A stretch of DNA of 5,538 nucleotides from the sequence record LT960607; one strand, given 5' to 3'. The notes beneath the pieces were generated by a model. That model was not told the origin of the DNA and ran no database searches. It saw nothing but the letters and a program-made list of their open reading frames with translations. This document shows, piece by piece, positions 1-5,538 of the stretch. The translations under genes and the position numbers were made by a program. Each line of letters begins with the position of its first letter. Positions within the stretch are counted from its first letter, which is position 1. This DNA is from Escherichia phage SECphi17.

Positions 1-1377
1 GATACATTCACCCTGGACGATATCATTTCCGGTAAACCAATCCCTGAAACTGCCCCTGATGAATTTCGCCTCTCCGATGAAATCGGTGAGGACTATCGTC
101 TTACCGTCCTTAAAATTGTCGATGAATTGCAAGAATGTTACGACGTGCTCGGACAACTTGATATTAATAACACTATAGACCACACCACTAAAGGTAACGT
201 CCACTGGAGTATGCTTTATGATAAACCTGTTAACACACATTGGTCACAGCTCGTATCTAAACGACCCCTTAAAGATATCCGCGCCGATTACAACTATGCA
301 AAGGCGAAGGGTATCAAGGATGAATGCTCAAAAATGCTTGAGGAGTCCACTATGAAATCACGACGTGGCTTTACCGTTCAAAGATTGATGAATGCCATGC
401 GCCAGGCCCACACTGATGGCTGGTATGTTGTATTCGACACTCTTACTCTGGCTGATGACCGCATACAGGCTTTCTATGATAATCCCAATGCTCTTCGTGA
501 CTACTTCCGTGATATTGGTCGTATGGTGCTTGCTGCCGAGGGTCGCTCTGCTAATGACTCACACGCCGACTGCTATCAGTATTTTTGTGTTCCAGAGTAT
601 GGCACACAGCACGGTCGTCTACATTTCCATGCAGTGCATCTTATGCGCACACTTCCTTTGGGTTCTTGTGACCCTAACTTCGGTAAGCTGGTACGCACTA
701 ATCGCCAAATAAACTCCTTGCAAAATACATGGCCCTATGGCTATTCTATGCCCATTGCAGTCCGGTACTCCCAAGACGCATTCTCGCGCGCTGGCTGGCT
801 CTGGCCTGTCGACTCAAAGGGTGAACCCCTTAAAGCTACCTCGTATCAGGCTGTCGGTTTCTACGTCGCTAAATACGTTAATAAAAAATCTGATATTGAT
901 CTGGCTGCAAAAGGCCTAGGGAATAAAGAATGGAACGCATCACTCAAGACCAAAATATCTCTACTACCAACCAAACTTTTCAGAATCCGGATGTCCCGCA
1001 ACTTCGGGATGAAGATGTTATCAATGGCGCACCTGACCGCCGAAACATTAATCCAACTGACCCAGCTGGGTTACGACTCGACCCCGTTCAACAACGTCTT
1101 GAGACAGAACGCCAAGAAAGAGCTGAAATCGAGGCTGGCAAAAACATCTGTCGCGACCGTTTTGGCGGCGCAACCTGTAACGACCAATCTGCTAAAATTT
1201 ATGCGCGATTTGACCCGAACAATCGGAGCGTCCAACCTGCAGAATTTTATCGCTTCAATGACGCAGAAATTAACACTCATGGATATTTCTGATGAAACCA
1301 AAAACTACCTTGCTGCTGCAGGAATTACTACATCTTGCTTACGAATTAAATCGAAGTGGACTGCTGGCGGAAAATGA
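1..1377 (+). CDS. A: Replication initiator protein A (rolling-circle HUH endonuclease), 3' portion; 5' end is at 5226 across the circular junction. Full gene is 1635 nt (544 aa).
   Basis: Frame 1 is open from base 1 to TGA at 1375-1377. Translation matches recalled phiX174 protein A over most of its length (e.g. [54 protein letters not shown]). HUH-type motif HFHAVH at 622-639; paired catalytic tyrosines in [10 protein letters not shown] (Tyr codons 862-864 and 874-876). The TTG at 127 in the ORF track is only the first start-like codon, not the real start. Confidence 0.95.
154..183 (+). other. Viral (+)-strand origin of rolling-circle replication: the 30-nt protein A recognition and nicking sequence, inside gene A.
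   Basis: CAACTTGATATTAATAACACTATAGACCAC at 154-183 is identical to the conserved 30-nt origin of phiX174-type phages as I recall it. The expected nick is between G160 and A161. Confidence 0.85.
352..1377 (+). CDS. A*: A* protein, from an internal in-frame start of gene A (341 aa).
   Basis: In-frame ATG at 352-354 (MKSRRGF...) preceded by GAGGAG at 340-345. Position and sequence match the recalled phiX174 A* start. Cannot be proven from sequence alone. Confidence 0.6.
718..747 (+). promoter_or_regulatory. Candidate sigma70 promoter pB inside gene A: -35 TTGCAA (718-723), -10 TATTCT (742-747), 18-nt spacer.
   Basis: Sequence match to -35/-10 consensus. It is positionally homologous to the recalled phiX174 pB region (TTGCAAAATACGTGGCC...), about 190 nt upstream of B. 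Not experimentally supported here. Confidence 0.35.
930..1292 (+). CDS. B: Internal scaffolding protein B (120 aa), encoded in an alternate frame entirely within gene A.
   Basis: ATG at 930-932, TGA at 1290-1292. C-terminal half closely matches recalled phiX174 B (EIEAGK..., [32 protein letters not shown]); N-terminal half is divergent. Confidence 0.9.
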
Positions 1378-2209: not shown

Positions 2210-3496
2210 ATGTCTAATGTTCAAACTTCCGCTTCTCGCGATGCAATTGATTTATCACATCTGGTCTTCAACACTGGCGCTATTGGTCGTCTTAAAGTCG
2301 CGTCATGGACTCCTGTTATTGCTGGTGATTCTTTCCAGCTTGATGCTGTTGGTGCTTTACGCTTATCCCCTCTGCGTCGTGGCCTGGCTATTGACTCAAC
2401 TGTTGACTACTTCACTTTTTACATTCCACACCGTCATATCTATGGCAATGCATGGATTGAATTTATGAAAACTGGTGTCGCCGCCGCTTCTCTTAACCCT
2501 GTAACCACTGCGGCTTATGTTGACGGTGCTTCTTATCTCGGTGTTATTCCTTCTGCTGACAACAAGGTTCCTAAATTCCTGCACCAAGGCTATCTCAATA
2601 TTTATAATAACTACTTCAAAGCCCCTTGGATGGCTGACCGTACTGAGGCAAACCCATCCAACTTAAATGATGACGACCGTCGTCACGGCTTCCGTTGCTG
2701 TCATTTAAAAAACATCTGGTCTGCGCCTCTTCCTCCTCAAACGGAAATTACCCGCGCTATGACTACTGGCGCTACCTCCATTGATATTATGGGTCTTCAA
2801 GCTGCTTACGCCCAACTTCACACTGACCAAGAACGTGACTACTTCATGCAGCGTTACCGTGACGTTATCTCTTCTTTTGGTGGCAAAACTCACTATGACG
2901 CTGATAACCGTCCTCTTCTGCTTATGCGCTCTAACTTCTGGGCATCTGGCTATGACATTGACGGTACTGACCAAACTTCTTTGGGTCAATTCTCTGGTCG
3001 CGTCCAGCAAACTTTCCGTCACTCTGTTCCTCGCTTCTTCGTGCCTGAACATGGCGTTGTTATGACTCTTCAACTTGTACGCTTCCCGCCTACCTGTACC
3101 GAGGAAACTCACTACCTCGTTGGCAAAGGCGCACTAAGCTATACTGACCTCGCGGGTGACCCTACTCTTTACGGTAACTTACCGCCTCGAGAAATCGAAA
3201 TGAAAAATCTCTTCCGTGGCGCTGCTGGCTCTACTGAAAAAATCAAAATTGCCGAAGGGCAATGGTATCGCTATCATCCTTCTTACGTTGATGGCCAATA
3301 TCACAACCTTAAAGGCTTCCCGTTCATCCTAAACGGCCCAACCGGCAACATGGAAAATCGTGTACTGATTGACCATAAAAAATATGACGAATGCTTCCAG
3401 TCACTTCAATTAACCCATTGGAATGCTCAGGCTAAATACAATGTCACTGTATATCGACACATCCCAACCACTCGTGATAGCATCATGACTTCTTAA
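2210..3496 (+). CDS. F: Major capsid protein F (428 aa).
   Basis: ATG at 2210 with AAGGA at 2199-2203. Long stretches match recalled phiX174 F (LRLSPLRRGLAIDSTVD, HQGYLNIYNNYFKAPWM, GFRCCHLKNIW.APLPP, IDIMGLQAAYA.LHTDQERDYFMQRY, QTSLGQFSGRVQQT, PTTRDSIMTS). Confidence 0.97.
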   Translation: MSNVQTSASRDAIDLSHLVFNTGAIGRLKVASWTPVIAGDSFQLDAVGALRLSPLRRGLAIDSTVDYFTFYIPHRHIYGNAWIEFMKTGVAAASLNPVTTAAYVDGASYLGVIPSADNKVPKFLHQGYLNIYNNYFKAPWMADRTEANPSNLNDDDRRHGFRCCHLKNIWSAPLPPQTEITRAMTTGATSIDIMGLQAAYAQLHTDQERDYFMQRYRDVISSFGGKTHYDADNRPLLLMRSNFWASGYDIDGTDQTSLGQFSGRVQQTFRHSVPRFFVPEHGVVMTLQLVRFPPTCTEETHYLVGKGALSYTDLAGDPTLYGNLPPREIEMKNLFRGAAGSTEKIKIAEGQWYRYHPSYVDGQYHNLKGFPFILNGPTGNMENRVLIDHKKYDECFQSLQLTHWNAQAKYNVTVYRHIPTTRDSIMTS

Positions 3497-3507
3497 AGCC
3501 TATAACG

Positions 3508-3545
3508 TGACAGGGGGAAAAATTTTAATTTTTCGCCCCCTGTCA
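3508..3545 (+). other. F-G intergenic hairpin: 10-bp perfect stem (TGACAGGGGG / CCCCCTGTCA) enclosing an AT-rich loop AAAAATTTTAATTTTTCG. Candidate complementary-strand priming site and/or terminator TF.
   Basis: Inverted repeat 3508-3517 / 3536-3545 read directly from the sequence. The loop is nearly identical to the recalled phiX174 F-G loop (TAAAAATTTTAATTTTTG). Confidence 0.5.
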
Positions 3546-3595
3546 GGTTGAACAAGCGCAAGCGCGTTAGCTGCCTAACTATAAGGACTACTCAA

Positions 3596-4129: not shown

Positions 4130-5167
4130 ATGTTTGGTTTAATCGCTGGCGGCATCGCCTCTGCTCTTGCTGGTGGTTTAATGTCCAAATTGATGGGCGG
4201 CAATAAACAAGCCGCCCCCTCAACTCCCGGACAAGGCCTCTTCGCTACTCCTGAAACTACTATCTCTGCTGATAATGCAGGTATTCAATCTGTTATGCAG
4301 GGGCCTAACCCGCCCGGCCCTGACCAAGCGGCTCCTTCATTTACCGAATCTGCCGTCTCCTCATTTAAGGATGTCGGCAAAGGACTTCTCGATGGTACTC
4401 TACAAGCTGGCGGCTCTGCTGTTCAACAAGCTCTTCTTAACAAAATTGGCCTCGGTGGTAAATCTGCTTCTGATAAAGGCGAGGACACTAAGGATTATCT
4501 TGCTGCTGCGTTCCCAGAACTCAACCCGTGGGAACGCGCTGGCGCTGGTGCTTCCTCTGCTGGCATGGTTGACGCAGGTTTTGAGAATCAAAAAGAACTA
4601 ACCAAAATGCAACTTGATAACCAAGTCAAAATCGCTAAGATGCAAAACGACACGCAAAAGGATATTGCTGGTATCCAGTCTGTCACTTCTCGGTTAAATA
4701 CCAAGGATTCTGTGTATGCTCAAAACGAAATGCTCTCATACAATCAAAGAGAATCTATGTCACGCGTTGGCGCTATTCTCGAAAACACAAGCCTCACCAA
4801 ACAACAACAAGTCTCTGAAATTATGCGGCAAATGCTTACTCAGGCTCAGACCGCAGGTCAATATTTTACAAATGACCAAATTCAAGAGCTTACTCGAAAG
4901 GTTGGTGCTGATATTGATGCTGTTCGCGCTAACACTGAGCGCACCAATGTAGAAACAGGCCGCTCCAAACAAGAGCTACAAAACTCACGTTATGCATCTT
5001 CACAGGTCGGTAAAACAGCCAAGGATATCTCAAATGTCATTATTGATGCATCTTCTGGTATTGTTGATTATTTCCGTGGCATTGATAAAGCTGTTGGCGA
5101 CACTTGGAACAATTATTGGAAAGATGGTAAAGCCGACGGAGTAGGCTCCAACATGTCTCGCAAATAG
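4130..5167 (+). CDS. H: DNA pilot / minor spike protein H (345 aa).
   Basis: ATG at 4130 with AAGGA 8 nt upstream. Glycine-rich N-terminus [16 protein letters not shown] and long matches to recalled phiX174 H ([101 protein letters not shown]). Confidence 0.95.
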
Positions 5168-5168
5168 T

Positions 5169-5198
5169 TTGACAATCACATCATAAATCCTATCTAAT
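5169..5198 (+). promoter_or_regulatory. Candidate sigma70 promoter pA in the H-A intergenic region: -35 TTGACA (5169-5174), -10 TCTAAT (5193-5198), 18-nt spacer.
   Basis: Perfect -35 hexamer immediately after the H stop and a 5/6 -10 match. Same placement as recalled phiX174 pA. Confidence 0.45.
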
Positions 5199-5220
5199 AG
5201 CCTCCATTAACACGGAGGCT
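5199..5220 (+). other. H-A intergenic hairpin AGCCTCC-ATTAACAC-GGAGGCT, whose 3' arm contains the gene A Shine-Dalgarno sequence.
   Basis: Perfect 7-bp inverted repeat 5199-5205 / 5214-5220. GGAGG at 5214-5218 lies 7 nt before the A ATG at 5226. Homologous in position to recalled phiX174 GCCTCCAAATCTTGGAGGC. Confidence 0.5.
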
Positions 5221-5225
5221 TTAAC

Positions 5226-5538
5226 ATGTCTGTAGAACTCATCAAACCACTTGTAGAAGCTGCTGGCATGTCCACGCTTACACAATCTCCAAACCTCCGC
5301 ATCTGGAAACAAGTAAACACTCGCGTAAAATTACTTGAAGAAATCCTTACTTATTACACAAACGGAATCCGTCGCTGCCCTGACACTCAGGACTTCTACA
5401 TGAATCCAAATTCACAACTTGCAACCACTATTGCCTATCGTGCTCATCAAAAGGGACACAATCCAAAATTCAAACAATACCCTGATACATTCACCCTGGA
5501 CGATATCATTTCCGGTAAACCAATCCCTGAAACTGCCC
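5226..5538 (+). CDS. A: Replication initiator protein A, 5' portion (runs to window end; continues in frame at 1..1377 of the circular genome).
   Basis: ATG at 5226 is the first start after an in-frame TAA at 5208-5210. GGAGG at 5214-5218 sits 7 nt upstream. The frame stays open to the window end, and 5484-5538 is identical to 1-55, joining frame 1 of the A body. Confidence 0.85.
   Translation, partial: MSVELIKPLVEAAGMSTLTQSPNLRIWKQVNTRVKLLEEILTYYTNGIRRCPDTQDFYMNPNSQLATTIAYRAHQKGHNPKFKQYPDTFTLDDIISGKPIPETA
5484..5538. repeat. 55-nt terminal direct repeat identical to bases 1-55: overlap from linearising a circular genome, not a biological repeat.
   Basis: Exact identity of 5484-5538 with 1-55, read directly. 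Gene A reads through the junction in frame. Confidence 0.9.

Follow-up and report, generated by a model that had tools for sequence, protein, structure and literature searches.

The A protein of this phage, when set beside that of phiX174, appears to carry an N-terminal region that is longer and only patchily similar, and this raises the question of whether the region was swapped in from another source, is evolving unusually fast, or is an ordinary feature of the lineage to which the phage belongs. Taking alignments, substitution rates and recombination analysis together, the answer is very probably that A has a normal G4-type N-terminus, separated from that of phiX174 by an old divergence between genera, that about the first 400 nt of the gene and the 3′ half of gene H were acquired by recombination, and that the region is held under purifying selection.

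The whole stretch of DNA analyzed, referred to here as the window, is 5,538 nucleotides long and consists of a complete circular G4-like microvirus genome of 5483 nt followed by a 55-nt assembly overlap.

5484 to 5538, no strand: exact 55-nt direct repeat of nt 1 to 55, a circular-assembly overlap and not a biological feature

Since these last positions repeat nt 1 to 55, the circle measures 5483 nt and gene A continues from 5483 into position 1; coordinates 5484 to 5538 are an assembly duplicate that adds no coding sequence to the gene. The Logan contig ERR2231584_64, which has a 30-nt overlap, gives an identical 5483-nt circle. Open reading frames and alignment to annotated relatives place the genes in the usual microvirus order H-A(A*,B,K)-C-D(E)-J-F-G, and Pfam recognized Microvir_H, Phage_GPA, Phage_C, gpD and Phage_F on the identical Logan contig. 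With megablast, the whole window aligned at 93.3 to 94.1% identity over 92 to 100% of its length to MG1, lillemer, Lilleput, Lilledu, Lilleto and Lilleen, and over part of its length at ∼79 to 85% to G4, ID2, ID18 and other G4-like phages. Genome-wide identity to the window was ∼79% for the Salmonella phage PJNS002 and ∼91% for L013 (ENA ERZ1749850 NODE_2562, which encodes P0003; also OBLN01002562.1). The Lille phages are gequatroviruses from Danish wastewater (PMC7552041). The highest identity of the window to a cultured phage was 94.1% (Lilleput, over 95% of the genome), and because this falls just below the 95% nucleotide identity used as the species line for phages, the genome may belong to an additional species within the Lille/SECphi17 cluster.

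Gene A crosses the junction of the circle and was read in two pieces, within which the landmarks of the protein could be placed.

5226 to 5483, plus strand: gene A codons 1 to 86, first piece, beginning with ATG 5226, with the open reading frame continuing at window position 1
1 to 1377, plus strand: gene A codons 87 to 544 and stop, second piece, giving a joined translation of 544 aa
154 to 183, plus strand: 30-nt viral-strand synthesis origin inside gene A, encoding residues 138 to 147, placed by its match to phiX174
352 to 354, plus strand: putative A* start, Met204, with AGGAG at 341 to 345 upstream, aligned to annotated A* starts
622 to 639, plus strand: HUH motif HFHAVH, residues 294 to 299, read directly (residue 263 in phiX174, 304 in G4)
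862 to 876, plus strand: catalytic tyrosine pair Y374/Y378 (YVAKY), aligned to phiX174 Y343/Y347

The joined frame bears out the length of 544 aa given in the first-pass annotation, against 513 in phiX174. Pfam Phage_GPA (PF05840) matched residues 163 to 385 with 201.5 bits against a gathering cutoff of 31.4, and PHROG 713, "DNA replication initiation," matched residues 116 to 544 with an E value of 3.5e-215; residues 1 to 115 had no coverage by Pfam or PHROG profiles. Pfam matches of A to "Death" and "BTB_3" had E values above 0.1 and were dismissed as chance. The origin at 154 to 183 shows 0 mismatches to phiX174 nt 4299 to 4328, with no such match expected by chance, and rep_origin is annotated at 4306 in NC_001422. 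Among 13 aligned A proteins, H294, F295 and H296 of the HUH motif and both tyrosines are invariant, and Y343/Y347 are named as the catalytic residues of phiX174 in a preprint that also summarizes the 30-nt origin (bioRxiv 10.64898/2026.07.25.740675). Met204 aligns with the annotated A* starts Met173 of phiX174 and Met214 of G4, and we infer that ATG 352 to 354 is an internal in-frame start yielding A*. Judged by these motifs, the protein is a standard Bullavirinae A, an HUH rolling-circle replication initiator.

Annotated A starts vary between phages, with lengths of 554 aa in G4, 553 in ID2, 556 in ID18 and 494 in phiK, so it could be argued that the start codon was misassigned and accounts for the extra length, the true A being shorter. 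We consider this highly improbable given that ATG 5226 is the first start past an in-frame TAA at 5208 to 5210 and lies 8 nt past a GGAGG at 5213 to 5217, that the same start and a 544-aa A are found in seven relatives (Lilleen, Lilleput, Lilledu, Lilleto, lillemer, MG1 and PJNS002), and that the excess over phiX174 is wholly internal (residues 51 to 108), with none of it at the start. The DNA immediately upstream has features of its own.

5168 to 5225, plus strand: H-A spacer, with TTGACA at 5169 to 5174 and a hairpin GCCTCC (5199 to 5204)-N8-GGAGGC (5213 to 5218)

The 3′ arm of this hairpin is also the Shine-Dalgarno sequence of A, and the spacer RNA folds with −16.5 kcal/mol (z = −3.1). The Lille phages, PJNS002, G4, ID2 and ID18 all keep the TTGAC core and the hairpin arms, with a variable loop. 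A TTGACA-18-TCTAAT candidate in the spacer was left uncalled by the promoter scan under its rule for the second hexamer; we infer from its sequence that it is a promoter. The hairpin may limit translation of A, act as an H-distal terminator or stabilize the A mRNA.

When A was aligned with its counterparts in phiX174, G4 and phiK, the alpha3 group being represented by phiK and NC29, the contrast between the two parts of the protein was seen against phiX174. Over residues 1 to 135, identity to phiX174 A is 27% with 48 gapped residues, and over the A* part (residues 204 to 544) it is 83% (Fisher p = 4e-36). The conserved catalytic and A* portion and the patchy N-terminal similarity described earlier were thus both recovered, the latter being true with respect to phiX174 only. 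Window residues 51 to 52, 61 to 76 and 79 to 108 (48 in all) are missing from phiX174, while a 17-residue leader of phiX174 is missing from the window, for a net difference of +31. All downstream landmarks are shifted by exactly this amount (QLD at 138 versus 107, the A* Met at 204 versus 173, HUH at 294 versus 263 and the tyrosines at 374/378 versus 343/347). The difference between 544 and 513 aa can therefore be explained by the fact that phiX174 lacks ∼46 insert residues and has a longer leader. The two proteins otherwise share an identical 30-nt origin, the HUH motif, the tyrosine pair, the A* start after the +31 shift and an N-terminal motif common to both (LKPAIEACGISTLSQSP...RIKLLEEIL).

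The same contrast with phiX174 is present in G4, ID2, ID18, Lilleput and PJNS002, with 23 to 27% identity before the origin block and 79 to 83% in A*. As every G4-like phage tested shows it, the difference lies at the level of the genus and reflects no event in this genome. All three genera differ from one another in this N-terminus/A* pattern. Alphatrevirus A (alpha3 group, phiK and NC29) shares 51% identity with the window protein in the catalytic core, whereas the N-terminus of phiK A, annotated at 494 aa, is 12% identical with 57 gapped residues. On the alignments, the divergent, longer N-terminus is an old genus-level trait of G4-like phages and is already known; it seemed odd because the comparison had been made with phiX174 (Sinsheimervirus), which is the wrong comparator. 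Godson et al. in 1978 and Rokyta et al. in 2006 reportedly noted that G4 and phiX174 diverge in the 5′ part of A and that microvirid coliphages recombine.

Against the appropriate relatives the N-terminus is unremarkable. Residues 1 to 135 are 94% identical to PJNS002, 89 to 90% to the Lille phages, 82% to G4 and 76% to ID2 and ID18, with at most one gap, and the residues upstream of the origin block are colinear with G4, ID2 and ID18 apart from one gapped residue, C51, which the window has in addition. A block of ∼46 residues (61 to 76 and 79 to 108) is present here and in G4, ID2, ID18, the Lille phages and PJNS002 but absent from phiX174. Full-length A is 85.5% identical to G4 A (N-terminus 82%, A* 88%), and the A* parts of G4, ID2 and ID18 are 85 to 88% identical to that of the window; these three phages also share the upstream spacer hairpin. 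They differ in carrying 10 to 12 leader residues (e.g., MFKVHSDYFNKP) ahead of the IKPLVE motif, so that the window A is shorter than G4 A, not longer. This leader is absent here and from all A proteins of the Lille/PJNS002 type, in which the start codon comes directly after the spacer hairpin. From these alignments, absence of the leader is a trait of the subclade and not peculiar to the window, and the N-terminus is of the G4 type minus a short leader, as in the Lille/PJNS002 subclade, and not of the phiX174 type.

These comparisons also bear on the possibility that A is a chimeric initiator whose N-terminal domain was taken over from a distant or nonhomologous source. Similarity to phiX174 and phiK is near zero at residues ∼45 to 110, and the lack of profile coverage over residues 1 to 115 could be read in the same way. 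The colinear alignment with G4, ID2 and ID18 (76 to 82%, one gap), together with the 94% identity to PJNS002, nevertheless refutes such an origin. A conserved motif at residues 6 to 42 is kept even in relatives of 42 to 45% identity, the first 408 nt of A match the DNA of G4-like phages only, with no phiX174-group match, and the predicted N-terminal fold resembles that of an alpha3-group gpA (see below). A distant swap is thus barely credible. The N-terminal region is not colinear with that of phiX174 A.

The anatomy of the region was derived from an alignment of the 13 A proteins, which reach down to 42% overall identity and are mostly G4-like, and from structural models that rest on this shallow, G4-dominated alignment and are indicative only. 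The alignment shows a variable leader, a motif at residues 6 to 42, an indel-rich stretch at ∼43 to 120 and, beyond it, E128 and the origin-encoded QLDxxxTxDH at 138 to 147.

5241 to 5351, plus strand: conserved N-terminal motif, A residues 6 to 42 (IKPLVEAAGMSTLTQSPNLRIWKQVNTRVKLLEEIL), from the 13-protein alignment
5364 to 5483, plus strand: indel-prone insert, A residues 47 to 86, first piece, with parts missing in phiX174, also from the models
1 to 75, plus strand: indel-prone insert, A residues 87 to 111, second piece, from alignments and models
76 to 159, plus strand: long helix, A residues 112 to 139, running into the origin-encoded segment; predicted at 112 to 136/139 with pLDDT 84 to 92

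Within the motif, P8, G14, P22, R33, L36 and L37 are invariant across the 13 proteins, as is E128 farther on, and distant relatives carry other indels within the insert at 47 to 111. An AlphaFold2 model of residues 1 to 203, built on the shallow 13-sequence alignment, reached a pLDDT of 77 and a pTM of 0.69; the full-length model was weaker (pLDDT 62.8) and agreed for the N-terminal part. Both models predict a long helix at residues 22 to 46/47. For the insert, a β-hairpin at 48 to 59 and a helix at 64 to 75 are predicted, with pLDDT of 76 to 86 in 10-residue blocks over 41 to 110, and the N-terminal model places a small β-hairpin and short helices across 48 to 96. The insert at ∼47 to 111 is thus probably folded, according to the models.

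A PDB sequence search with full A returned nothing relevant, the best hit being an irrelevant Csy1 at E = 0.5, and a PDB fold search with the full and N-terminal models gave no match below E = 0.16. Fold matches to T3SS tip proteins (E of ∼0.5 to 1, TM of ∼0.3, rmsd above 14 Å) were set aside as chance. The sole notable match in a viral-library fold search was NC29 gpA, with an E value of 1.1e-3, just above the cutoff of 0.001, and a TMq of 0.42. As the N-terminal model matches this protein, the prediction suggests a fold common across Bullavirinae despite ∼12% sequence identity.

We compared substitution rates by the Nei-Gojobori method between codons 1 to 135 and codons 204 to 395, the latter overlapping no other gene. 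Relative to the Lille phages, dN/dS is 0.09 to 0.12 over codons 1 to 135 and 0.07 to 0.12 over codons 204 to 395, while dS is 0.56 to 0.72 and 0.10 to 0.20, respectively, with dN raised in proportion. The dS ratio between the two segments is 2.4 to 5.7 for the window against the Lille phages, and the excess is confined to these comparisons; in deep pairs such as Lille versus PJNS002 and Lille versus L013 it is 0.6 to 1.4, so the N-terminal coding region is no general synonymous hot spot. By these estimates strong purifying selection acts equally on the N-terminal region and the A* part, and the suggestion that it is evolving fast did not hold, because dS climbs in step with dN and dN/dS is ∼0.1 in both parts.

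Rapid change of the protein, whether constraint had been relaxed or positive selection was at work (as in adaptation to the host Rep helicase), would fit the lower protein identity to the Lille phages in residues 1 to 135 (89 to 90%, versus 98% in A*), the ∼5-fold-higher dN there and the N-terminal omega values, which in many pairs lie slightly above those of the mid-gene (0.05 to 0.13 versus 0.04 to 0.09). It would also fit a phiX174 chemostat experiment in which two-thirds of the gene A substitutions fell in the N-terminal third (PMC3606162). We nonetheless find it very unlikely. The rise in dS (0.58 to 0.63 versus 0.11) tracks that in dN, leaving dN/dS at ∼0.10 in both parts, the excess is missing from the other deep pairs, and phages outside the Lille group are nearer in this region than the Lille phages are, a pattern that selection alone leaves unexplained. 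High dS in the N-terminal region also argues against an overlapping frame. The short open reading frames found there were 37 to 40 aa on the minus strand (5190 to 5320) and 39 aa on the plus strand (59 to 178), and a hidden overlapping gene was rejected.

Purifying selection on a G4-type N-terminus leaves the raised dS against the Lille phages to be explained, and here the closest relatives are informative. The A proteins of the Lille phages and MG1 match that of the window in length (544 aa), start context and absence of indels, with 95 to 96% identity overall and 98% in A*, and their genomes are 93 to 94% identical with the same gene order. One of them, Lilleen, comes close to uniform identity along A (96% overall, 90% in the N-terminus and 98% in A*), the very observation that would speak against a divergent N-terminus. 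The exception is local, A nt 151 to 400 being 83 to 86% identical to the Lille phages with a dS ∼5 times that of the remainder of the gene. In sliding windows, nucleotide identity to the Lille phages is 81 to 91% from ∼4450, in mid-H, to about position 120 of the window (A codons ∼1 to 125), and there PJNS002 and L013 are equally near to the window or nearer. Over A nt 1 to 400 and the 3′ half of H, dS from the Lille phages is 3 to 5 times that of the remainder of the genome.

4486 to 5167, plus strand: 3′ half of H, a patch of different ancestry, nearer to PJNS002/L013 than to the Lille phages; starts the maximum chi-square arc
5376 to 5483, plus strand: core of the A 5′ patch of different ancestry, first piece, from identities and bootstrap
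1 to 142, plus strand: core of the A 5′ patch, second piece; the maximum chi-square arc ends at 127

The 3′ half of H is 89 to 90% identical to the Lille phages and 93.3% to PJNS002, and the 5′ half is 93 to 95% identical to the Lille phages and 65% to PJNS002. A nt 151 to 400 are likewise closer to L013 (90.8%) and PJNS002 (89.6%) than to the Lille phages. PJNS002 and L013 A, both also 544 aa long and PJNS002 the closest of all over residues 1 to 135, are unlike the window in the A* portion (85%). Of the sites at which the window agrees with PJNS002 against unanimous Lille phages, 44 of 63 lay in the arc from 4486 to 127, among 71 informative sites, and this arc gave a chi-square of 350 versus a permutation maximum of 47 (0/200). 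The bootstrap proportion in which a non-Lille phage was closer was 0.998 for A nt 151 to 400 and 1.000 for the 3′ half of H, and 0.000 for both A nt 401 to 1632 and the 5′ half of H, for which the Lille phages are nearer. The H-A spacer of 58 nt between the two patches is 98% Lille-like, and A nt 1 to 150 are equidistant from the Lille phages and PJNS002 and 75% identical to L013, so that several breakpoints are needed.

These patterns point to homologous recombination among close gequatroviruses, probably in more than one event. By this route, a related, unsampled gequatrovirus lineage would have contributed the 3′ half of H and the opening ∼400 nt of A. A search for the donor of the odd segment among cultured phages, a 5.8-billion protein collection, IMG/VR and JGI metagenomes found none above 90 to 91% at the nucleotide level and nothing above 93 to 94% at the protein level. 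L013 is itself mosaic, with 93 to 99% identity to the window in C, D, J, F and G, 72 to 90% in mid-A and 75 to 87% in the 5′ half of H, and for this reason exchange within the clade seems, from the genomes compared, to be frequent. The earlier idea that the N-terminal region had been swapped thus survives as a small-scale exchange covering A nt 1 to 400 and the 3′ half of H, supported by dS and the switch of nearest relative, but not as the acquisition of a foreign domain.

A mosaic of this kind could also arise if two co-occurring gequatrovirus strains had been merged in one contig. The sequence does correspond to a contig from a sequencing run (Logan ERR2231584_64), related strains are often found together in wastewater (PMC7552041), and the breakpoints fall in regions of high similarity. 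Two assemblies, with overlaps of 55 nt and 30 nt, gave the same circle, although the same reads may underlie both. The odd segments have no close known strain, window-unique sites are spread through them, and other genomes of the clade (L013 and PJNS002), including cultured isolates, are also mosaic. We therefore judge an assembly artifact unlikely and retain recombination as the source of the two patches.

On the circle, the 5′ third of A lies next to the 3′ half of H, and in phiX174 both H and A have been connected with early stages at the site of host replication. One could imagine that these two segments form a module recurrently exchanged among gequatroviruses, with the insert at 47 to 111 as a specificity element; we offer this tentatively and regard it as doubtful. 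If so, lineages could pass host-compatibility determinants, for instance the Rep-helicase interface, to one another by exchanging the module.

The part of A that is absent from A* comprises residues 1 to 203. In phiX174, A* is missing the first 172 residues and is unable to start rolling-circle replication, and the host helicase is an interaction partner of A's N-terminal third; origin-specific nicking, covalent attachment and Rep dependence are known for phiX174 A only (PMC3606162). By analogy, the most likely role of the N-terminal part is in origin initiation and Rep coupling: it would enable the HUH nuclease core to start work at the origin of supercoiled replicative-form DNA and would link this core to the Rep helicase of the host. 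The preprint on complete mutagenesis of phiX174 (bioRxiv 10.64898/2026.07.25.740675) gave nothing specific on the tolerance of the A N-terminus.

The result is of little importance in itself and mainly corrects a comparison made to the wrong reference. It does provide a description of the A-specific N-terminal third across Bullavirinae, in which a conserved helix motif is followed by an indel-prone insert and then by a helix that runs into the origin-encoded block, and adds one further case of short-tract recombination among close G4-like coliphages. In practice, the insert at 47 to 111 and the mosaic boundary could serve as cut points for chimeric A proteins with which to map the Rep-helicase/origin-recognition interface.

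Some further observations concern other parts of A and of the genome. Residue 309 of A (nt 667 to 669) is the lone hypervariable position in an otherwise invariant LPLGS-x-DPNFG, where the window has Cys, the Lille phages Arg, PJNS002 and phiX174 Val, ID2 Ile, and G4 and ID18 Leu. Many of the public protein matches (P0013 to P0033, P0054, P0056 and others) are phiX174 A fused to H or other phiX genes, some of them filed under eukaryotes (Zygosaccharomyces, Saitoella, Colletotrichum and Clonostachys); these entries are phiX174 sequencing spike-in contamination and misassemblies. The G4 F-G spacer holds a primase-dependent complementary-strand origin, and the corresponding spacer of the window contains a prominent hairpin.

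3497 to 3595, strand not given: F-G spacer, with a hairpin at 3508 to 3545

This hairpin is a long near-perfect inverted repeat (TGACAGGGGGAAAAATT...AATTTTTCGCCCCCTGTCA), with a single-stranded DNA folding energy of −20.7 kcal/mol (z = −4.8), and it may correspond to that origin or be a terminator. Compared with window positions 3418 to 3568, Lilleen (L001) lacks ∼150 nt at the end of F and in the F-G spacer that the other relatives have; its identity drops to 5 to 53% in those windows and its annotated F runs into G, which may reflect a deletion or an assembly gap in the record.
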